DNA of 11,181 nucleotides from a virus, in the UHGV virus genome UHGV-0130923, one strand, 5' to 3'. Position numbers and translations under genes: made by a program. Every line of letters begins with the position of its first letter. The stretch's first letter is position 1. This document shows, piece after piece, positions 1 through 11,181 of this stretch. Below the pieces are notes generated by a model that was not told the DNA's origin, searched no databases, and saw nothing but the letters and a program-made list of their open reading frames with translations.

Positions 1-1
1 G

Positions 2-124
2 CTGTACGTTTCGCCGATTGTTTCCGGTGAGGTTATCCGTTCCCGTGGCGGCTCCACCTCTGAATTTACGCCGGGATATGTCAAACCCAAGCACTTAGCA
101 TGGCTTTCTGAGGCTTTCGTGTAG
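2..124 (+). CDS. E: Lambda E-like major capsid protein, N-terminal-side fragment of the helper prophage gene (runs off the window start, interrupted by the island)
   Basis: Frame starting at nt 2 reads LYVSPIVSGEVIRSRGGSTSEFTPGYVKPKH, then nine unrelated residues (LAWLSEAFV) and a TAG at 122-124. The conserved part matches lambda gpE residues ~52-82 as I recall them. The reading frame changes character exactly at the direct repeat. Confidence 0.8.
   Translation: MYVSPIVSGEVIRSRGGSTSEFTPGYVKPKHLAWLSEAFV
84..93. other. attL core: left copy of the 10-bp direct repeat AACCCAAGCA
   Basis: Identical 10-mer at 84-93 and 10843-10852, each sitting on the K-P-K-H codons of the split capsid gene. An integrase gene begins ~160 bp inside the left copy. 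Confidence 0.75.
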
Positions 125-202: not shown

Positions 203-241
203 TGTGTGTTGCAATCATCTCTGTATTGCAGCTTGTATTGC
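203..241. promoter_or_regulatory. attL arm-type repeats (putative integrase arm-binding sites) overlapping the int leader
   Basis: TGTGTTGCAA (205-214), TGTATTGCAGC (223-233) and TTGTATTGC (233-241). The same TGTATTGCAGC / ATGTATTGCAAC motifs recur at 10745-10769 just inside the right end. Confidence 0.5.
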
Positions 242-256
242 TTTTTGGGGCTAAAA

Positions 257-1492
257 ATGGCTGGCGAGAACAAACTGAGCGACAAAGCGCTTAAAGGATA
301 TCTGGGGAAACCCAGAGAAAAGCAGATCACCATTGCTGATGGAAAGGGGCTTTCTATTCGTGTGAGTACTAAAGGGGCTGTGAGCTTTGTTTTCTTCTAC
401 AGGTTAGCAGGTGGCCGGGCTGCTCCGGTCTGGCTAACGTTGGGTAAATATCCTGATATGTCACTCAAACAGGCAAGGGAAAAGCGCGACGAGTGCCGTG
501 GTTGGTTGGCTGACAAACGTGATCCGCGTATCCAGATTAAGATTCAGGCTGAAGAACGCTTAAAGCCGGTTACAGTGGAGGATGCACTAAATTACTGGTA
601 TGAAAATTACTGTAAGGTGCGTCGTAAAACTCATGCTGTAACGCTTGGCAGATTTCGAAAGCATATCTTTCCCTATATCGGTCATTTGCCCGTAAATGAC
701 ACTCACCTATATGAATGGCTGGACTGTTTTGACCGAATTAAACGTAATGCACCAGTTATGGCGGCGTATGTTTTTTCTGACACTAAATTAGCTCTTCGTT
801 TTTGTCGGGTACGCCAGTACGCGACGTGTGATGCTTTAAAGGATTTGCGCATGAGTGATGTGGGGCAGATTGCAGGTAAGCGGGATCGGGTTCTGGATGA
901 AGCCGAACTCGGCCAGCTCTGGAAGGCAATTTTTGTCGAGCCTGATTTAAAACTAATGTCTGAATACACGCGAAAAATGTTTGTGCTTTGTACAGTATTT
1001 GGATGTCGAATGAGTGAAGCCCGATTATCAGAATGGAGCGAATGGGATCTCGAAAGTTGGGTTTGGACTGTACCAAAAGATCACTCAAAAACTGGTGTTG
1101 AAATCGTCAGACCAGTACCTGAAATTCTACGACAGTGGGTAACGGATGTTCACGAAGAGACAAAACATACTGGTTATGTGCTGGGAAGTCTGCGAATTAG
1201 AGAAAGCGTAAGCAAGATTGGGGGGAAAATCGGTAAACGTTTGGGCCATGAAAAACAATGGTCACTACACGACCTTAGAAGAACGCTATCTACTCATCTA
1301 AGTGATCTCGGTGTTGAATTTTATGTAGTAGAACAACTGTTAGGCCATGCGCTACCTGGCGTGGCAGGTGTTTACAACCGGAGTAAGTTTATGGCTAAAA
1401 AACTGGATGCTCTGGAACTCTGGACTACATATCTCAATAGCATCGCAGGTGCTGATTCAAAAGTGACAATCCTCAAACAAAAGGTTGGTTAA
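257..1492 (+). CDS. int: Tyrosine site-specific integrase, P4-like family
   Basis: ATG at 257 gives MAGENKLSDKALKGYLGKPREKQITIADGKGLSIRVSTKGAVSFVFFYR, a typical P4-type integrase N-terminus. The C-terminus has HDLRRT, LLGHA and GVYNRS, consistent with the catalytic R/H/R/Y signature. The track start at 206 is a GTG extension through the arm repeats and is not preferred. Confidence 0.85.
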   Translation: MAGENKLSDKALKGYLGKPREKQITIADGKGLSIRVSTKGAVSFVFFYRLAGGRAAPVWLTLGKYPDMSLKQAREKRDECRGWLADKRDPRIQIKIQAEERLKPVTVEDALNYWYENYCKVRRKTHAVTLGRFRKHIFPYIGHLPVNDTHLYEWLDCFDRIKRNAPVMAAYVFSDTKLALRFCRVRQYATCDALKDLRMSDVGQIAGKRDRVLDEAELGQLWKAIFVEPDLKLMSEYTRKMFVLCTVFGCRMSEARLSEWSEWDLESWVWTVPKDHSKTGVEIVRPVPEILRQWVTDVHEETKHTGYVLGSLRIRESVSKIGGKIGKRLGHEKQWSLHDLRRTLSTHLSDLGVEFYVVEQLLGHALPGVAGVYNRSKFMAKKLDALELWTTYLNSIAGADSKVTILKQKVG

Positions 1493-1493
1493 C

Positions 1494-1721
1494 ATGAAAA
1501 AAATGGCAATTGTTGATAAAAAGGGTCTGGAGTACATTCCTAACATTGACCGAATGATCCGTGAGAAAGAATGTCGGGAGCTAACCACTCTTGCGAACAG
1601 CACACGCTGGAAGCTGGAGAAGGAAGGAAAATTTCCTAAGCGGATCAAGATTGGTTCCACTGCTGTTGCATATCGTCTTTCAGAAGTGCAGGCATGGATT
1701 CGAGGTGAGTGGGTAGTTTAA
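1494..1721 (+). CDS. alpA: AlpA-family helix-turn-helix protein (putative excisionase or transcriptional regulator)
   Basis: ATG at 1494 lies 2 nt after the int stop with AAGG ~10 nt upstream. The product contains ELTTLANSTRWKLEKEGKFPKRIKIGSTAVAYRLSEVQAWI, which fits the AlpA/Xis-like HTH pattern. Confidence 0.65.
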   Translation: MKKMAIVDKKGLEYIPNIDRMIREKECRELTTLANSTRWKLEKEGKFPKRIKIGSTAVAYRLSEVQAWIRGEWVV

Positions 1722-3104: not shown

Positions 3105-3189
3105 TGATCGATTCATAAAAACGACGAAACCCGGCAGTGCGCGAACACTAACCGGGCTTCTAACCAAACCGTTAAACGAGGTAACGATT

Positions 3190-3555
3190 ATGGCTGGAAC
3201 ACAGCATACCCAAACTCACCCTAAATTTATATACACCTTTGTGGCACTACACCACGACCGCATGGCAGATGGAGCAACTACGGTACATGTTGCCGCTGAC
3301 ACGCTGGTTGATGCCCGCAAGATGGTTAAGGAGATGGGCTATACTGCGGCTTTCTGGAAAGGGCGTGAAGAAAACACGCTGTTTATTCAGAAATGCGAAA
3401 ACAATTTCATCTGGCGTTTTATCGCCCTGAGCACCGCACAACCACGCGTAATACACATCGTGGCCACCAGCGAACAGGAAGCCCGCCAGCAATCCCCGGC
3501 TGGTTGCGTGATGGTATTCGCCGCCCGTATTCGTCAGGAGGTATGCCGTGCTTAA
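3190..3555 (+). CDS. Hypothetical protein, first gene of the plus-strand early operon
   Basis: ATG at 3190 preceded by GAGGT at 3179-3183. This is the in-frame internal start of track ORF 2641..3555, whose upstream part overlaps the opposite-strand gene and the operator region. Confidence 0.5.
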   Translation: MAGTQHTQTHPKFIYTFVALHHDRMADGATTVHVAADTLVDARKMVKEMGYTAAFWKGREENTLFIQKCENNFIWRFIALSTAQPRVIHIVATSEQEARQQSPAGCVMVFAARIRQEVCRA

Positions 3556-3733
3556 AACCTTCCGTGTATTTGCCCGAGCGGTTAACCCACGAGGCCACAC
3601 AATTGGTATCACTCAGAACGTGAAGGCTGTTAATGTTCAGACGGCTATTGCTGCGGTGAGAAGCGAATCATCAGAATATGGCTTATCACAAGTTATTATT
3701 TCAGCAGTGTATGAATTAAAAGAGGTGCATTAA
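3548..3733 (+). CDS. Hypothetical small protein
   Basis: GTG start at 3548 with a strong AGGAGG at 3535-3540, overlapping the upstream stop (translational coupling). Confidence 0.45.
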   Translation: MLKTFRVFARAVNPRGHTIGITQNVKAVNVQTAIAAVRSESSEYGLSQVIISAVYELKEVH

Positions 3734-3924
3734 TGCAGGAAATTACATTACACGAAGCCGCTGAACGTGCGCACCAGACAGAGATTATTTGCCGCCTTCT
3801 TGAGGTATACCCGAACAAAATTACAGATGCTGATATATCCGCACTGGCGAGCCTACTGGCGCGTCTCTCTGGAGGGGTGGCTGCGTGGTTGCAGGAAGAG
3901 GAAGAAAAACGCAATGAGCAATAA
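3733..3924 (+). CDS. Hypothetical small protein
   Basis: ATG overlaps the previous stop (TAATG) with AGAGG upstream; 63 aa with an acidic C-terminus. Confidence 0.45.
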   Translation: MQEITLHEAAERAHQTEIICRLLEVYPNKITDADISALASLLARLSGGVAAWLQEEEEKRNEQ

Positions 3925-4156
3925 CAAACGCGTAATTTGCGAATTGAATGAACTCACACAAAGCGCAATATCTTACAACAATGCCGTAAGTGAGATTATT
4001 AACGTCTGGTTTGAATCGCTGACAAATTACGAGCGTGACGAGTCAACGGCAAGATTAACCTTTGCCATTTCTGAATTACTGGATATTTCCACCAGCAAGA
4101 TAAACAGAGCATTAGAAAAAATTCACGAATTAAAACACCACACAAACGGAATTTAA
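3914..4156 (+). CDS. Hypothetical small protein
   Basis: Internal ATG at 3914 (MSNNKRVICELNELTQ...) with a purine-rich GGAAGAGGAAG upstream, overlapping the previous gene by 11 nt. The upstream part of track ORF 3767..4156 is Arg-rich and embedded out of frame in the previous gene, so it is not preferred. Confidence 0.4.
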   Translation: MSNNKRVICELNELTQSAISYNNAVSEIINVWFESLTNYERDESTARLTFAISELLDISTSKINRALEKIHELKHHTNGI

Positions 4157-4160
4157 TTAT

Positions 4161-4340
4161 ATGGGAATGAAAAATACTGGTGTTAATGCCAGCGGCCCCG
4201 CTCGTCCTGAATTTATGAACGGCGATATTTACCGTGATAAATACGGCGGCACGGTAACGATTAAAGGCGTGGCAGAACGGCGTATCACTTACCGCTGTGA
4301 AGGCACGGGCAAACATCCAGAAAATGAAAAACATGCTTAA
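4161..4340 (+). CDS. Hypothetical small protein (59 aa, just below the track cutoff)
   Basis: ORF MGMKNTGVNASGPARPEFMNGDIYRDKYGGTVTIKGVAERRITYRCEGTGKHPENEKHA fills the gap before the primase gene on the same strand. No clear ribosome-binding site. Confidence 0.3.
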   Translation: MGMKNTGVNASGPARPEFMNGDIYRDKYGGTVTIKGVAERRITYRCEGTGKHPENEKHA

Positions 4341-4358
4341 CGGATTCAGGGGGCAAAA

Positions 4359-6110
4359 ATGAAGAGCGCACCGAACCTAAAAAAACAGCCGCGCGACAAG
4401 ATGACAGAAGTTATTATTTTTGCGGGTAGTGATGCGTGGAGCCATGCGAAAGAGTGGCAGGAATGGGCGGGTAAACATATTGCCGCCGACGATGTGCCGC
4501 CTGTCGTGCTGGCTGATGAGCAACTGAAAAATATCACCGATTACCGGATCATTGATGAAGATCGTCAGTGTGTGCGTGTTTACCGCGCAGGACATATCAC
4601 AGAGCACAGCATGACGCAGATTGTTACGTTACTGGCTGTGGCTGGAGTGAAGACCGTACACGAATACGCGGGGATTACTGACACCAGCCCCGTGGATTTA
4701 TCCGACCAGTTGCCGCGACTCAAAGAGGAATGCGAGCGTGGGGAAAGTCTGGTGCTTAATCTTCCGACGAAGCAAAAGGCGCAACTTTCACAGATGGCAG
4801 ACAGTGAACGTGCACAACTACTTGCCGATCGCTTTGATGGTGTGTGTGTTCATGCAGAAAGTGAAATCGTCCACGTATGGCGCGGCGGGGTATGGTGTCC
4901 GGTCAGCACAATGGAGCTGAGCCGCGAAATGGTGGCGATCTATTCAGAGCACAGGGCCACATTCAGCAAGCGTGCAATTAATAACGCCGTGGAGGCGTTA
5001 AAAGTTATTGCCGACCCCATGGGGGAGCCGTCCGGTGATTTGCTACCGTTCGCCAATGGTGTGCTTGACCTGAAAACGGGGGAATTTTCCCCGCACTCGC
5101 CGGAGAACTGGATCACCACGCACAACGGCATTGAGTACACGCCACCAGCACCAGGGGAGAACATCCGCGACAACGCGCCAAACTTTCATAAATGGCTTGA
5201 TCACGCAGCCGGAAAAGACCCACGCAAGATGATGCGTATATGTGCCGCGCTGTACATGATTATGGCGAACCGGTACGACTGGCAGATGTTTATTGAGGCC
5301 ACCGGAGACGGCGGGAGCGGAAAGAGTACATTCACGCACATAGCCAGCCTTCTGGCAGGGAAACAGAACACGGTAAGCGCTGAAATGACTTCGCTTGATG
5401 ATGCTGGTGGGCGTGCTCAGGTTGTCGGGAGTCGTCTTATCGTCCTGGCTGACCAGCCGAAATATACAGGCGAAGGCACGGGCATCAAGAAAATCACGGG
5501 CGGCGACCCCGTGGAAATAAACCCGAAATATGAAAAGCGTTTTACGGCGGTAATCAGGGCGGTGGTGCTGGCTACCAACAATAACCCGATGATATTCACC
5601 GAACGGGCCGGAGGTGTGTCACGTCGTCGCGTAATTTTCCGCTTCGACAATATCGTTAGCGAGGCAGAAAAGGACAAGGATTTACCGGAGAAGGTCGCGG
5701 CTGAAATCCCCGTGATTATCCGCAGATTGCTGGCAAACTTTGCTGATCCAGAAAAGGCGCGACATTTGTTGATTGAACAGCGCGACGGTGAAGAAGCACT
5801 GGCGATAAAGCAACAGACGGATCCGGTTATTGAGTTTTGCCAGTTTCTGAATTTTCTGGAGGAAGCGCGCGGCCTGATGATGGGTGGCGGTGGCGATTCC
5901 GTGAAGTACACGACCAGAAACAGCCTTTACCGCGTCTATCTGGCGTTTATGGCATACGCAGGCAGAAGCAAGCCGCTAAACGTGGCTGATTTCAGCAAGG
6001 CCATGAAGCCAGCGGCGAAAGTTTACGGATGTGAATATATAACGCGCAGGGTTAAAGGACTTACGCAAACCAATGTGACAACAACAGAGGATTGCGACGC
6101 GTTTTTATAA
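4359..6110 (+). CDS. Primase-helicase family replication protein (P4 alpha C-terminal / D5-like NTPase)
   Basis: 583 aa with a Walker A P-loop GDGGSGKST and a downstream hydrophobic strand ending in acidic residues (RLIVLADQP), Walker B-like. AGGGGG ribosome-binding site before the ATG at 4359. An iteron array lies immediately downstream. Confidence 0.75.
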   Translation: MKSAPNLKKQPRDKMTEVIIFAGSDAWSHAKEWQEWAGKHIAADDVPPVVLADEQLKNITDYRIIDEDRQCVRVYRAGHITEHSMTQIVTLLAVAGVKTVHEYAGITDTSPVDLSDQLPRLKEECERGESLVLNLPTKQKAQLSQMADSERAQLLADRFDGVCVHAESEIVHVWRGGVWCPVSTMELSREMVAIYSEHRATFSKRAINNAVEALKVIADPMGEPSGDLLPFANGVLDLKTGEFSPHSPENWITTHNGIEYTPPAPGENIRDNAPNFHKWLDHAAGKDPRKMMRICAALYMIMANRYDWQMFIEATGDGGSGKSTFTHIASLLAGKQNTVSAEMTSLDDAGGRAQVVGSRLIVLADQPKYTGEGTGIKKITGGDPVEINPKYEKRFTAVIRAVVLATNNNPMIFTERAGGVSRRRVIFRFDNIVSEAEKDKDLPEKVAAEIPVIIRRLLANFADPEKARHLLIEQRDGEEALAIKQQTDPVIEFCQFLNFLEEARGLMMGGGGDSVKYTTRNSLYRVYLAFMAYAGRSKPLNVADFSKAMKPAAKVYGCEYITRRVKGLTQTNVTTTEDCDAFL

Positions 6111-6120
6111 TTTTAGACAA

Positions 6121-6353
6121 AAGCCCTCTACCTCCTCTACCTAAAGAAAATAAATATATATTATTCAATATGATAAGCAGGTAGAGGGCTAGGTAGAAGG
6201 CAAATAAAAGCCCTCTACCTCCTCCACCATGATTAAGGTCATTTGTGAGGGGCGGGTAGAGGATGGGTAGAGGGCCCCGAAAGCCCTCTACCCATCTGAA
6301 AGCCGCGCCATTACTGACCTGAAAGATGATTAGGTAGAGAGGTAGAGGAGGTG
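6121..6353. repeat. Iteron array, putative island origin of replication
   Basis: About 11 copies of CCTCTACC / GGTAGAGG in alternating orientation (for example 6124-6141, 6180-6200, 6210-6227, 6254-6274, 6284-6293, 6333-6351), with an AT-rich stretch at 6142-6180, directly after the primase-helicase gene. Confidence 0.65.
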
Positions 6354-6396
6354 CACCACATTTCAAAACTTTTTAAACGAGGGGGTAAAAATAAAA

Positions 6397-6654
6397 ATGC
6401 ACACATCAGGAAAACTGAACAAACATATAAAGCCACATTACCGCGCCCTTGATATGGCTGAACACTGGCTAAGGGTGGCGATTAAGGCAATAGATCGCAA
6501 CGCCGGGGAAGGATACGCGAAAGCACATCCCGAACTGATAAGCGCATTCATGACAACGGCGGCTGCAAACTTTGCCACGCTGACCGAACGGGAGATTGCC
6601 GAAGCGGAGGAAGTGACAACCATCAATATTAAGTCCGGAGAGCAGGCAGCATGA
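6397..6654 (+). CDS. Hypothetical protein
   Basis: 85-aa ORF with GAGGGGG upstream; its stop overlaps the start of the SSB-like gene (ATGA). Confidence 0.45.
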   Translation: MHTSGKLNKHIKPHYRALDMAEHWLRVAIKAIDRNAGEGYAKAHPELISAFMTTAAANFATLTEREIAEAEEVTTINIKSGEQAA

Positions 6655-7073
6655 CGGCGCAAATATCAGTTTACGGGAGGTTGGTGGACGACCCGCAGAC
6701 AAAACAGACCAGCAAGGGCATCCCCATGACGCTGGCGCGTATGGCGGTATCACTGCCCTGCAGTCAGTCGGATGACGGTCAGGCGACGATGTGGTTATCT
6801 GTCCTGGCGTTTGGCAGACAAGCCGACACGCTGGCAAAGCATCACAAAGGCGAACTCCTGAGCGTGGCGGGTAACATGCAGGTGAGCCAGTGGACTGGAC
6901 AGAACGGTGAAACGCGGCAGGGCTGGCAGGTTATCGCAGACAGTGTAATCAGTGCCAGAACGGCGCGACCGGGCGGCAAAAAAGGTCAACAGGGCCAGGC
7001 TACTGACGCACTGAACAGGGCAAAACAACAGTCGGGGAATGATGATCCGTACGGCGATAATATACCGTTTTAA
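6651..7073 (+). CDS. ssb: Single-stranded DNA-binding protein-like (OB fold with an acidic C-terminal tail)
   Basis: 140 aa. The N-terminus ISVYGRLVDDPQ and the spaced W/G/F pattern resemble SSB OB folds, followed by a Gly/Gln-rich linker. The C-terminal DDPYGDNIPF resembles the E. coli SSB tail DFDDDIPF. Confidence 0.6.
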   Translation: MTAQISVYGRLVDDPQTKQTSKGIPMTLARMAVSLPCSQSDDGQATMWLSVLAFGRQADTLAKHHKGELLSVAGNMQVSQWTGQNGETRQGWQVIADSVISARTARPGGKKGQQGQATDALNRAKQQSGNDDPYGDNIPF

Positions 7074-7290: not shown

Positions 7291-8331
7291 ATGGTTGATT
7301 TATATTCGCCTGCCCAGCTTGTGCAGGTGGCTAATGCTGAAGATGTGCAAAAAAAATTAAATGCGTTGTTTACCAGTTTGTTTTTCACTCGCTCGGTAAT
7401 GTTTGAATCGAGAGACATTATTCTTGATACGATCGACGATCCAAATATCCCGATCGCGGCGTTTTGCTCTCCTATGGTGGGCAGTAAGGTTTCACGAGAT
7501 GAGGGATACGAATCAAAGACAATTCGTCCAGGCTATATGAAGCCGAAAAGCAGCATTGATCCAAATAAGTTAGCTGTGCGCCCTGCGGGTGTATCACCTG
7601 AGCAATACAATGCTTTTGGAGCGCGTAATATTAAAGTTAAACAGGCGATTGTAAATCAGGCTAAAGCTATTCGTGCACGTATTGAATGGCTTGCCGTTCA
7701 GGCAATCACAACGGGGAAAAATATCATTGAGGGCGATGGTATTGAACGTTATGAGCTGGACTGGAATATTAAACCACAAAATATCATCACTCAGTCTGGC
7801 GGTGCTGAGTGGTCAGGTAAGGATAAAGAAACTTTTGATCCAAATGATGATATTGAGAGCTACGCAGAATTTAGTGAGGGCGTCACTAATATCATCATTA
7901 TGGGCGGTAATGTATGGAAGAAATACCGTTCATTCAGAGCGATAAAAGAGGCTCTGGATACCCGTCGTGGTTCTAATGCCGAACTGGAAACGGCCCTTAA
8001 AGACCTTGGTGATTCGGTGAGTTTTAAAGGGTATATGGGCGATGTTGCGATTGTTGTATACAGCGGGCGTTATACCGACGAGGACGGAACTGAAAAACAT
8101 TTCCTTGATCCTGATTTGATGGTGCTTGGCAATACGGCTCTTCAGGGGATTGTCGCCTATGGCGGTATTCAGGATCCGGAGCTAATCCGAATGGGGCTGA
8201 CTAAAGCCGAACTTGCACCGAAAAACTATATTGTGCCTGGTGATCCGGCTATTGAATATGTGCAGACACATTCAGCACCACAGCCAATACCGGCCCGCAT
8301 CAATCGTTTTGTTACCGTTCGCATTGGCTAA
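7291..8331 (+). CDS. Island-encoded divergent homolog of the lambda major capsid protein gpE
   Basis: ATG at 7291 with AAAGAGGA upstream. The product aligns with lambda gpE along its length: ITQSGGAEWSGKDKETFDPNDDIESYA vs ITQSGGTEWSKRDKSTYDPTDDIEAYA, TRRGSNAELETALKDLG vs TRRGSNSELETAVKDLG, GDVAIVVYSG and MVLGNT shared. It is far more divergent than the flanking helper fragments. Confidence 0.85.
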   Translation: MVDLYSPAQLVQVANAEDVQKKLNALFTSLFFTRSVMFESRDIILDTIDDPNIPIAAFCSPMVGSKVSRDEGYESKTIRPGYMKPKSSIDPNKLAVRPAGVSPEQYNAFGARNIKVKQAIVNQAKAIRARIEWLAVQAITTGKNIIEGDGIERYELDWNIKPQNIITQSGGAEWSGKDKETFDPNDDIESYAEFSEGVTNIIIMGGNVWKKYRSFRAIKEALDTRRGSNAELETALKDLGDSVSFKGYMGDVAIVVYSGRYTDEDGTEKHFLDPDLMVLGNTALQGIVAYGGIQDPELIRMGLTKAELAPKNYIVPGDPAIEYVQTHSAPQPIPARINRFVTVRIG

Positions 8332-8340
8332 GGGGGAGCA

Positions 8341-8682
8341 ATGGCTACTCATTACACTGAACTCATGGCTGGCACTGAAGCACTGGTGACTACGCTGGGG
8401 ATATTTTCAGCTAATAAAGGGGTAATTCCTGCATTTACGCCACTGATGCAGGAAGATGCAACAGGTGCACTGGTGGTATGGGATGGTTCGAGCGTAGGTA
8501 AAGCGGTTTATGTTTCCGCTGTACAAATCGACACCGCGAAAAAAACACAGGCTCAGGTCTATAAGACAGGTGTCTTAAATGTTGATGCTCTGAACTGGCC
8601 TGAGTCTGTAAAAGAACTGTCAGTAAAGATTGCAGCGTTTGTTGGCTCAGGTATTTCTGTTCAGCCGCTGGCTCGTGTGTAA
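8341..8682 (+). CDS. Island-encoded homolog of the lambda head decoration protein gpD
   Basis: 113 aa with an AAGGGGGAG ribosome-binding site. TPLMQEDATGALVVWDGSS...YKTGVLNVDALNWPE...AAFVGSGISV parallels lambda gpD TPLMLDTSSRKLVAWDGTT...YKSGTFRYEDVLWPE...TAFAGTAISIV. Confidence 0.8.
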   Translation: MATHYTELMAGTEALVTTLGIFSANKGVIPAFTPLMQEDATGALVVWDGSSVGKAVYVSAVQIDTAKKTQAQVYKTGVLNVDALNWPESVKELSVKIAAFVGSGISVQPLARV

Positions 8683-8693
8683 AGGGGGATACA

Positions 8694-9077
8694 ATGCAGA
8701 ATCTTTACAATGACCTTAAGCCAATTGCCGAAATGATGTATCCGGATCCAGCAGTAGAGGAATTAAAGGCTATTGCTGACAAAATGCGTTTAAGCGAGCG
8801 TCTTGTTGATATGAATCAGGTGATGGAACTTACAACCCTGAGTCGTCGTACACTGCTAAACCTTGAAGCACGTGGAGAGTTCCCCGAACGCGTGCAGGTT
8901 ACGGAAGGGCGTAAGGCCTGGTATTTAAGCGAAGTGATCGACTGGATAAACAATATTCCGCGCGCTTCTGAATATTGCCGCGTACCTGTCCCAAAAAAGC
9001 CAGATGCGGCGCTATGCCTCAAGATTGAGCGTGTACGCCGCAATGCGCGGGATGGTCGCTATAAGCTGATTGGTTGA
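8694..9077 (+). CDS. Second AlpA-family HTH protein, directly upstream of cos
   Basis: 127 aa with an AAAGGGGGA ribosome-binding site. Contains MELTTLSRRTLLNLEARGEFPERVQVTEGRKAWYLSEVIDWIN, an AlpA-like motif. Co-oriented and tightly spaced with the E and D homologs. Confidence 0.6.
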   Translation: MQNLYNDLKPIAEMMYPDPAVEELKAIADKMRLSERLVDMNQVMELTTLSRRTLLNLEARGEFPERVQVTEGRKAWYLSEVIDWINNIPRASEYCRVPVPKKPDAALCLKIERVRRNARDGRYKLIG

Positions 9078-9103
9078 TGAAATTAGGGCCCGTTCTGGCT
9101 GGC

Positions 9104-9167
9104 GGGTCCTTTCCGGCGATCCGACAGGTTACGGGGCGGCGACCTCGCGGGTTTTCGCTATTTATGA
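9104..9167. other. Lambda-type cos site (cosQ-side sequence, cosN GGGCGGCGACCT at 9134-9145, first cosB element)
   Basis: GGGTCCTTTCCGGCGATCCGACAGGTTACG-GGGCGGCGACCT-CGCGGGTTTTCGCTATTTATGA matches the lambda genome ends as I recall them (right end ...CCGACAGGTTACG, left end GGGCGGCGACCTCGCGGGTTTTCGCTATTTATGA...). Sequence after 9167 no longer matches lambda cosB. A Nu1-like gene follows ~150 bp downstream, as in lambda. Confidence 0.8.
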
Positions 9168-9293
9168 GCATTTTTAGGGGACTGGTGGTGGTTTTGTTGT
9201 TCGCTATATCTGTATGAATAATAAGAGAAAAACACAATCAACACACCAACCTGAAACAGTAATTAAGTTGTGGTATCAATGAAATTGCACCTG

Positions 9294-9821
9294 ATGAACA
9301 AAAAAAACATGGCAAAAAGTTGCCGTGTAAGCGCCACTGCGTTCGATAAGTGGGGAGTGATTCCCGTCGAGCGTAAGGGCCGCGAGGCGTTTTATGATGT
9401 CGCCAGTGTAATAGATAATCGGGTTAACAATGCAATCAGCCAGATTACAAACGAAACGGGCGAGATTGATGATGATGAACTCCTACGAGTCAGGATCAGA
9501 TTGCTGACAGCACAGGCAGAGGCGCAGGAGCTTAAAAACGAGCGCGAACGCGGCGACGTTATTGATACAGCGTTTTGTATATACGTGCTTTCAAAACTGG
9601 CGAGTCAGATTTCTTCAATCATGGACAGCCTGCCGCTTGCCATGACAAGGAAGTTTCCCGACATGAAGCCGTCTATGCTGGATGGACTGAAAAAAGAAGT
9701 TATCAGAGCCTGTAACGCATGCGCAAAACTTGACGAAAACATACCGCTGATGCTGTCCGATTATCTGATGGAAACTGCCGGAAACGTACCGGATAAGTTG
9801 CAGCTGAATAAAGATAAGTAA
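9294..9821 (+). CDS. Nu1-like terminase small subunit
   Basis: LTAQAEAQELKNERERGDVIDTAFCIYVLSKLASQISSIMDSLPLAMTRKFP...LDENIPLMLSDYLMETAG parallels lambda Nu1 LTRAQADAQELKNARDSAEVVETAFCTFVLSRIAGEIASILDGLPLSVQRRFP...LDELIPGLLSEYIEQSG. Start chosen at ATG 9294 (MNKKNM...) by analogy with Nu1 MEVNKKQ; ATG 9279 and GTG 9270 are alternatives. Confidence 0.75.
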   Translation: MNKKNMAKSCRVSATAFDKWGVIPVERKGREAFYDVASVIDNRVNNAISQITNETGEIDDDELLRVRIRLLTAQAEAQELKNERERGDVIDTAFCIYVLSKLASQISSIMDSLPLAMTRKFPDMKPSMLDGLKKEVIRACNACAKLDENIPLMLSDYLMETAGNVPDKLQLNKDK

Positions 9822-9832
9822 CGTAGTACGCT

Positions 9833-10114
9833 ATGACTGAATCCGAAATACTGCGATTAATCCGCCGTGCTTGTGGAATCAGCAAGCAGCATGACGAACA
9901 GGCCACGCAGCCGGACAGCGTGATCGCCGAAAATTACGCGCGTGTTGTTGCTGATGTGATGCGCCGTGATGGTATTGAGCTTAACGGCGTGGATATGCGC
10001 GACATACGGATCAGATTCCTTGAGTTGCTGGCATACCGTCGCCGTTCTCAACAACGAAGGGAGAGCGCGAAAAACACTTATCAGTGGAAGAAGCCGGAAC
10101 GGTTGCGGCGGTAG
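9833..10114 (+). CDS. Hypothetical Arg-rich small protein, possibly a vestigial terminase large subunit (gpA) N-terminal fragment
   Basis: 93-aa ORF immediately after the Nu1-like gene, where gpA begins in lambda. Weak resemblance of SEILRLIRRACGIS...AENYA to gpA N-terminus SQVNRLRHFVRAGLRS...ADANYY; the remainder is Arg-rich. Weak ribosome-binding site. Confidence 0.3.
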   Translation: MTESEILRLIRRACGISKQHDEQATQPDSVIAENYARVVADVMRRDGIELNGVDMRDIRIRFLELLAYRRRSQQRRESAKNTYQWKKPERLRR

Positions 10115-10744
10115 ATTCCTGATATTCAGGAAAACCACGAATCCGGGGGTTTTACTGGCGCGGTGTACACGGTGGAACGTATAGCGTTACCTGACTTATT
10201 GCATTGTAAAAAGTTGAAAGGCACGGCCTGTAAGATGGGATGTTGTGAGTAGTTTAAAGCTACCCGCAAATTCTTTCGTTGTGCTGGCACAGGCGGTTAA
10301 ACCGTCGGTAACTGGATAATCCCCACTGGGGGAAAAGCTGGCTACATCCCTCACATCTGAGGACTGATAACGCAAAATTGCGTTGGCTGGCAGAGTGCAA
10401 ATTTGCACGATGGCCTAACCCATTGATTCTTTCGAAAACCCCCATTGGGGGAGAACGGGGGAATAAACCTGACTCATTGATTTTTCCACAATCCTTAATT
10501 TGAGGAAGCTGGATAGTTGCACTACCCAAAAAGTGCAGTACCCACATAGCTGCTTAATAGCGTTTATTTTTTCCGCACACCTCAAATCTGAGAAGGCCGG
10601 AATGATGACATGGCAGGATTATGATTCCTTGATTTCAAGGAGTCCTCCAGTGTGAAAATGAAATTATCTGGGCTGGTGGGTGAGTTGCTGATCTGCAACT
10701 CGGCTATGAAACTTAATAATCGAACAGCATGTAAATTCATTTCT

Positions 10745-10769
10745 GTGTATTGCAGCATGTATTGCAACA
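10745..10769. promoter_or_regulatory. attR arm-type repeats (putative integrase arm-binding sites)
   Basis: TGTGTATTGCAGC (10745-10757) and ATGTATTGCAAC (10758-10769), the same motif family as at 205-241 in the left end. Confidence 0.5.
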
Positions 10770-10842
10770 TAGTCATTCTGGTAGAGATTATGCTCTATTT
10801 TTCCTCTTATATCATTCACATACTTACGTCATTGACTCATGT

Positions 10843-10852
10843 AACCCAAGCA
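10843..10852. other. attR core: right copy of the 10-bp direct repeat AACCCAAGCA
   Basis: Identical to 84-93; the capsid reading frame resumes immediately (P-K-H-E-V-N-P-Q). Confidence 0.75.
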
Positions 10853-11181
10853 TGAGGTGAATCCGCAGATGACCCTGCGTCGCCTGCCGGATGAAGATCC
10901 GCAGAATCTGGCGGACCCGGCTTACCGCCGCCGTCGCATCATCATGCAGAACATGCGTGACGAAGAGCTGGCCATTGCTCAGGTCGAAGAGATGCAGGCA
11001 GTTTCTGCCGTGCTTAAGGGCAAATACACCATGACCGGTGAAGCCTTTGATCCGGTTGAGGTGGATATGGGGCGCAGTGCGGCGAACAACATCACACAGT
11101 CCGGTGGCACGGAGTGGAGCAAGCGCGACAAGTCCACGTATGACCCGACCGACGATATCGAAGCCTACGCGCTGAACGCCA
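10845..11181 (+). CDS. E: Lambda E-like major capsid protein, distal fragment of the helper prophage gene (runs off the window end)
   Basis: Frame from 10845 reads PKHEVNPQMTLRRLPDEDPQNLADPAYRRRRIIMQNMRDEELAIAQVEEMQAVSAVLKGKYTMTGEAFDPVEVDMGRSAANNITQSGGTEWSKRDKSTYDPTDDIEAYALNA, which continues lambda gpE from residue ~80 as I recall it. An in-frame TAA at 10842-10844 immediately precedes it. Confidence 0.8.

Follow-up and report, generated by a model that had tools for sequence, protein, structure and literature searches.

The window analysed here, the whole 11,181-nt stretch of the virus genome UHGV-0130923, holds an island of 10.76 kb between two halves of a lambda-type major capsid gene E (Table 1). 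Bases 2-94 (...LYVSPIVSGEVIRSRGGSTSEFTPGYVKPKH) translate into the N-terminal part of a lambda-type capsid protein E, and this left fragment, ...EFTPGYVKPKH, enters the island sequence as LAWLSEAFV*, a foreign tail of 10 codons followed by a stop. The E reading resumes at bases 10845-11180 as PKHEVNPQMTLRR... / PKHEVNPQMTLRRLPDEDPQ..., and joining of the two halves in silico across the shared 10-mer gave one uninterrupted lambda-E-type frame. The sequence-only reading, which was made from the letters of the window without database searches, had placed the cut in the helper capsid gene at GYVKPKH, and both the translation and the restored frame bore this out. The integrase, alpA and primase genes are co-oriented with the helper E.

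Table 1. Features of the 11,181-nt window, in order of position
Feature	Position	Strand	Evidence or remark
Helper prophage major capsid gene, 5' fragment (lambda E type), end ...GYVKPKH	1-93	+	Translation
attL identity block AACCCAAGCA	84-93	+	Probable strand-exchange region: first 7 nt (84-90)
Doubled motif tcTGTATTGCagctTGTATTGCt (P' arm)	220-242	+	131.5 nt from att centre
Tyrosine integrase, HE-PICI clade	257-1492	+	Pfam Arm-DNA-bind_3 and Phage_integrase
AlpA regulator/excisionase	1494-1721	+	Pfam Phage_AlpA 2.8e-15
AT-rich variable cargo ORF, 168 aa	1822-2328	-	Differs among related islands
Divergently transcribed ORF, 100 aa	2679-2981	-	Equivalent in L001/L073 annotated YlcI/YnfO family
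Primase/helicase (D5_N, DUF5906, Pox_D5)	4359-6110	+	Pfam
Iteron cluster	6119-6352	.	AAAGCCCTCTACC x3 and inverted GGTAGAGGGC copies
Single-strand DNA-binding protein (SSB)	6651-7073	+	Pfam SSB 2.7e-16
Island's own major capsid homolog (Phage_cap_E family)	7291-8331	+	Pfam 4e-41, phrog_29 1.2e-88
att-equivalent codons GYMKPKS (codons 81-87 of ORF 7291-8331)	7531-7551	+	Alignment
Head decoration protein homolog (lambda D family)	8341-8682	+	Pfam HDPD 4.4e-15, phrog_49
Second AlpA-like HTH protein	8694-9077	+	Pfam Phage_AlpA 1.4e-8, phrog_2790, PDB 8C3T
Lambda-type cohesive-end sequence (cos), GGGCGGCGACCT	9134-9145	+	Sequence match
Terminase-small-subunit-like (TerS-like) protein	9279-9821	+	phrog_57 2.3e-51; 'terminase small subunit' in L001
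Conserved 93-aa protein, phrog_1561, function not known	9833-10114	+	PHROGs
Doubled motif tgTGTATTGCagcaTGTATTGCa (P arm)	10744-10766	+	81.5 nt from att centre
attR identity block AACCCAAGCA	10843-10852	+	Flanks CTCATGT ... GCATGAG, near-perfect inverted repeat
Helper capsid gene, 3' part (start), PKHEVNPQ...	10845-11181	+	Cut off at window end

The DNA of the helper 5' fragment was matched in 3207 E. coli genomes, with 95.7-100% identity to 'major capsid protein' genes among the matches listed. In E. coli GN06489 (L001), the same junctions were found within a complete lambdoid late operon in the order Nu1, A, W, B, C, D, split E, FI, FII, Z, U, V and onwards, and in E. coli NRG 857C (L073), too, this junction lies inside a full lambdoid late operon. 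The portal gene of the GN06489 helper prophage (15550-17151 of L001) is annotated as a pseudogene with an internal stop; this helper may be defective and its satellite stranded, like many of the helpers surveyed in PMC10111431.

Within the island, the stretch of about 1722-2650 has a GC content of 0.32-0.36 and looks like an accessory-gene hotspot. The 168-aa cargo ORF appeared hydrophobic by eye, gave only a weak DUF443 match and possibly encodes a membrane protein; related islands list other genes, e.g. a DUF2971-domain gene somewhere in the islands of some relatives. The divergent 100-aa ORF had no Pfam match. A weak symR-like Rfam match (3123-3195, minus strand) lies in the divergent regulatory region, with the YlcI/YnfO-like ORF on one side and the Icd-like ORF on the other; its score of 35 bits (E = 0.001) is below the gathering score of 61, and it is probably due to chance. 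The permissive-threshold Rfam scan returned nothing above the gathering scores, giving besides the symR-like match only two spurious miRNA matches on the iterons, and it did not find the C4/isrK immunity RNAs that have been reported for some helper-embedded PICIs (HE-PICIs). The iteron copies of AAAGCCCTCTACC are spaced 73-87 bp apart in a cluster between the primase and SSB genes, and since this position agrees with the PICI ori location in PMC10111431, the cluster is the probable replication origin of the satellite.

In the late part of the island, positions 9103-9174 matched the region upstream of the helper small terminase gene in NRG 857C at 94%, which is consistent with packaging by the helper cos machinery. 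The TerS-like protein had no match among PDB sequences and the sole PDB match of the second AlpA-like protein was the AlpA entry; neither could be equated with the published Rpp proteins by these searches. Between the last conserved gene and attR, about 730 bp (10115-10842) contained no convincing ORF. Only the last ~100 bp of this region is accounted for, by the P-arm motif, and the attR-proximal sequence varies among relatives.

A capsid-forming PICI (cf-PICI) carries a complete capsid and packaging set, i.e. portal, protease/scaffold, head-tail connectors and large terminase together with the capsid protein. The island falls short of this set: it has capsid, decoration and TerS-like genes only, and among the 17 of its ORFs that were compared with either Pfam or PHROGs, no portal, protease or TerL gene was seen. 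The window is an HE-PICI of the "11capE" type, site group E:Phage_cap_E:80, which was defined with 201 elements by Tommasini, Mageeney & Williams (2023, NAR Genom Bioinform 5:lqad036; PMC10111431). The same paper described Eco567.11capE, an 11-kb PICI inside the E-type capsid gene of an E. coli NRG 857C prophage, showed its excision experimentally after mitomycin induction and already reported the "10-bp sequence identity block" of 11capE. It also gave an HE-PICI-specific doubled motif, tgTGTATTGCantgTGTATTGCa, whose copies flank the attP centre, 81 ± 2 bp upstream of it and 132 ± 2 bp downstream, and both doubled TGTATTGC motif copies in the window fit these spacings. The integrase gene has 99.6% nucleotide identity with the NRG 857C 11capE integrase, its placement in the HE-PICI clade being based on Pfam domains and nucleotide identity. 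As in HE-PICIs, the attL/attR identity block is short (10 bp) and is not accompanied by a replacement sequence for the gene that is targeted. HE-PICIs are organised in four ordered zones (Integration, Bro, Replication and Late), of which the first, third and fourth are present here; the second zone has the AT-rich, putatively membrane-encoding ORF, the YlcI/YnfO-like ORF and the Icd-like ORF, and no Bro-N domain was detected by Pfam in the ORFs scanned, which included part of the small ORFs.

The 10-mer AACCCAAGCA had been noticed only at the two att sites, and this held: an exact search located it at 84-93 and 10843-10852, and the exact and one-mismatch check found no further core copy in the island. 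Two exact copies compare with 0.04 expected by chance, and none of 200 shuffles gave two or more, so the two att copies are a real direct repeat. In the one-mismatch search, 0.82 matches were expected, att sites included, and no extra copy appeared; that a third copy is missing from 10.7 kb is what chance would give and carries no statistical weight.

This 10-mer is one allele of the att block in the 11capE-type family. Across more than 70 relatives the block varies allelically as A[A/G]CC[N]AA[G/A]CA, and the commonest allele, AGCCGAAGCA, is also present in lambda E (nt 235-244). The base to the left of the block was always different between attL and attR. At eight loci, position 8 was G in attL, as in every island, and A in attR, reflecting the AAA lysine codon of the helper. 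The variants at the left base and at position 8 would confine strand exchange to the first seven bases of the block, where it probably takes place, this placement resting on natural variants that later homologous exchange between prophages could also produce. The flanks of the attR 7-mer, CTCATGT and GCATGAG, form a 6/7 inverted repeat and are candidate core-type sites of the integrase, with the helper GCATGAG as the putative B' core-binding site. At eight loci (L005, L012, L014, L017, L018, L038, L039 and L040), the att alleles differ between attL and attR at positions 2 and 5 (AACCC versus AGCCG), which could be explained either by integrase tolerance of two overlap mismatches or by post-integration homologous exchange between lambdoid prophages.

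The question whether related islands always target this block of E codons was raised in the sequence-only reading and can be answered with yes for this integrase subclade. Relatives of the integrase (83-100% protein identity) were taken from IMG/VR, which gave 68 loci, from species-representative genomes, which gave 3 in a scan that used peptide patterns of close relatives and a single genome for each species, and from E. coli genomes. Of 73 sources, the window and 72 loci, 67 have an E fragment ending in ...GY[V]KPK immediately upstream of int, and in most of the remaining six, the contig begins at or inside int. The loci are not phylogenetically independent, and many of those from IMG/VR come from closely related E. 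coli isolates. The integrase was present in 175 of 5426 complete E. coli genomes, and the attL junction in 174. Sister integrase subclades use 13 other late-gene sites, a group with a very similar integrase sits in tRNA-Phe, and off-target integrations have been reported for HE-PICI integrases (PMC10111431). In L004 (Kluyvera sp. 142359), the C-terminal 110 integrase residues alone were matched (89%), with neither an E fragment nor an island capsid detected; this relative may be truncated or chimeric and sit elsewhere.

The island's own capsid homolog scored 141.6 bits with Phage_cap_E (PF03864), for which the gathering cut-off is 22.9, its residues 12-343 covering profile positions 4-327 of 329, and its PDB matches included 3BQW (3.9e-121) and lambda gpE 7VI9 (5e-77). 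The sequence-only reading had pointed to the codons in this gene that correspond to the cut in the helper. Their sequence, GGCTATATGAAGCCGAAAAGC, indeed encodes GYMKPKS, inside RPGYMKPKSSID, and lacks AACCCAAGCA. The positional equivalence was confirmed by a global alignment with a full-length helper E rebuilt from L001, which carries the commoner att allele: no gap falls between residues ~55 and ~100, and PGYMKPKSS lines up with PGYVKPKHE.

In register with the att block, the island has AGCCGAA at 7541-7547. The commonest att allele starts with these same 7 nt, and the overlap allele of the window itself, AACCCAA, differs from them at 2 of 7 positions; AGCCGAA is also found at three other places in the island. 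The constant difference is in the right flank, where the helper has GCATGAG and the island AAGCAGC, with 0/7 matches, and it is fixed by the amino acids, HE in KPKHE and SS in KPKSS. As the capsid codes for KPKSS and not KPKHE, the full att block cannot occur there. Scanning the island with a 21-nt attB model gave a best match of 15/21 and none that was convincing, and the capsid site itself matched the attB 21-mer at 10/21 for the allele of the window and at 12/21 for the commonest allele.

Taken with the wider distribution of this capsid, we read 7531-7551 as an ordinary stretch of an HE-PICI capsid gene and the absence of the 10-mer as a by-product of deep divergence and modular inheritance, with a probability of about 85%. 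Long divergence had been offered as the second of two explanations in the sequence-only reading, and it is well supported by the capsid identities, the codon use and the satellite-specific lineage. The island capsid and the helper E have 42.8% protein and 50% DNA identity, and the same codon is used at 39% of the identical residues. Over the att-equivalent 30 nt, 17 positions match, compared with a gene-wide mean of 15.0 ± 3.8, a count that was made with the commoner-allele helper and that the allele of the window would lower by two; the att-equivalent stretch is therefore not unusually diverged. In a search of 50,697 records, all 437 phage capsid matches to the island capsid were below 60% identity, with at most 44% among the matches listed (best 42-44%).

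The same capsid is also found in satellites that are not inserted in E. A chromosomal PICI in E. coli SLK172 (L074, roxA/phoQ site) has an integrase with 45% identity and a capsid with 99.4% protein identity, and another in strain 1296KP (L075, cspD/clpS site) has an integrase with 42% identity; both share the capsid-decoration-AlpA-like-TerS-like module with the window, and their capsid peptide IRPGYMKPKSSID is identical. The capsid-decoration module was found in 395 E. coli genomes and the integrase in 175. Helper-embedded and chromosomal PICIs exchange this late module. In the chromosomal PICIs the same peptide goes with integrases that do not target E, so the capsid trait is not tied to the E-targeting integrase; the att-equivalent sequence is inherited with a lineage of satellite capsids that travels between islands as a module, and was not shaped by that integrase.

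A different explanation would be that the island capsid formerly had a usable att site, or would drift to one, and that the site has been kept different by selection against intramolecular recombination between attP and a pseudo-attB. [quoted passage not shown] However, divergence in the att-equivalent region is no higher than elsewhere in the gene, and the missing 10-mer is what chance predicts for 10.7 kb. The synonymous positions are not kept different either: the K-P-K codons drift (AAG/AAA, CCG/CCC/CCA) while the peptide IRPGYMKPKSSID stays invariant, and the capsid 7-mer is equal to the own att 7-mer in 27 of 64 relatives. The sequence also does not track the E-targeting integrase, being present in the chromosomal PICIs above. 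Selected avoidance of the att site is thus not supported and we regard it as unlikely. The invariance of KPKSS could in principle reflect selection of some kind, for which structural constraint is the simpler reading.

The relationship could also run in the other direction, with the integrase clade having settled on the KPKHE block because helper and satellite capsids differ irreconcilably there at the protein level. If this were true, the satellite would carry a capsid homolog and yet attack the copy of the helper, with KPKSS as part of a self/non-self discrimination; we consider this very doubtful.

That the AGCCGAA site in the capsid gene serves as a weak secondary site, at least in relatives with an AGCCGAA attP, seems highly improbable. 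The 7-mer is in register with the att block, only 30 of 21,458 island positions match the attB 21-mer of the AGCCGAA allele as well as this one does, and off-target integrations have been published for HE-PICI integrases. However, the right flank has no match, the overlap in the window differs at the two positions given above, and the 7-mer is repeated at three further places. No island rearranged in keeping with such recombination was found among the 72 related loci, which have lengths of 10.3-11.3 kb and an intact capsid gene wherever its sequence is present. A recent capture of the island capsid from the interrupted helper gene was rejected, as the two are 43% identical and the att region is not specially diverged.

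Divergence and modular inheritance remain the preferred reading. The tyrosine integrase of the satellite inserts the element at codons ~79-82 (KPKH) of the helper lambda-type E, which would stay split until the satellite excises. The attP would consist of the 7-nt overlap, the flanking core sites and the doubled arm motifs on either side. The satellite capsid, from the same Pfam family as E and about 43% identical, belongs to an old satellite-specific lineage, and its att-equivalent site is most probably inert and unusable by the integrase, as it lacks the putative right-hand core site and, in the window, differs at two overlap positions too. Inertness would be beneficial, because an active capsid site, being direct with attP, would lead to recombination that splits the excised circle, but there is no indication that selection favoured it.

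It is plausible that the satellite capsid blocks self-insertion as a consequence of its sequence, as the sequence-only reading had proposed. The basis given there, the difference in the 10-mer, is weak, because K-P-K differs synonymously from allele to allele and in 27 of 64 relatives the capsid has the 7-mer of the island's own att site. The point that the island capsid lacks the att sequence was already known: the capsid homologs were compared in Figure 1A of PMC10111431, where the conclusion on self-integration was drawn, and the picture of a satellite that keeps its helper's capsid gene hostage until excision was likewise described in 2023. What is added here is the allelic nature of the att block, the probable exchange in its first 7 nt, the discrimination by the right flank and a capsid lineage common to chromosomal PICIs. 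These refinements would be useful for the design of att-site assays and for island annotation, and leave the overall picture unchanged.

Compared with the EcCICFT073-type chromosomal PICIs (Fillol-Salom et al. 2018, ISME J, PMC6092414; 2019, Mol Cell, PMC6739421), the window has the same int-alpA genes, regulatory zone, primase-SSB genes and late genes with cos. The chromosomal PICIs differ in that they occupy chromosomal sites, have integrases 42-45% identical to that of the window, leave the helper gene uninterrupted and are without the doubled TGTATTGC motif (none in L074). Lambda gpE (PF03864; PDB 7VI9) is of the same type as the helper gene in the window, and the island capsid belongs to the same Pfam family with about 42-43% identity, gpE having KPKHE where the island capsid has KPKSS.

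Another of the closest known systems is the 11capE element of NRG 857C. It occupies the same codons in a capsid gene of the lambda E type and has the att allele AACCCAAGCA, its capsid segment ATTCGTCCAGGCTATATGAAGCCGAAAAGCAGCATTGAT is identical, and it has the doubled TGTATTGC motif at equal spacings. The two elements differ in the primase region of the window (about 3550-6440), which had no BLASTN match in NRG 857C, and downstream of cos, where the window has the TerS-like and phrog_1561 genes (9279-10114) and the compared region of NRG 857C (19776-21750 of L073) has HEPN and DUF262 genes on the other strand. The published 11capE was described as being without terS (PMC10111431), and the region after cos looks like a second variable cargo slot.
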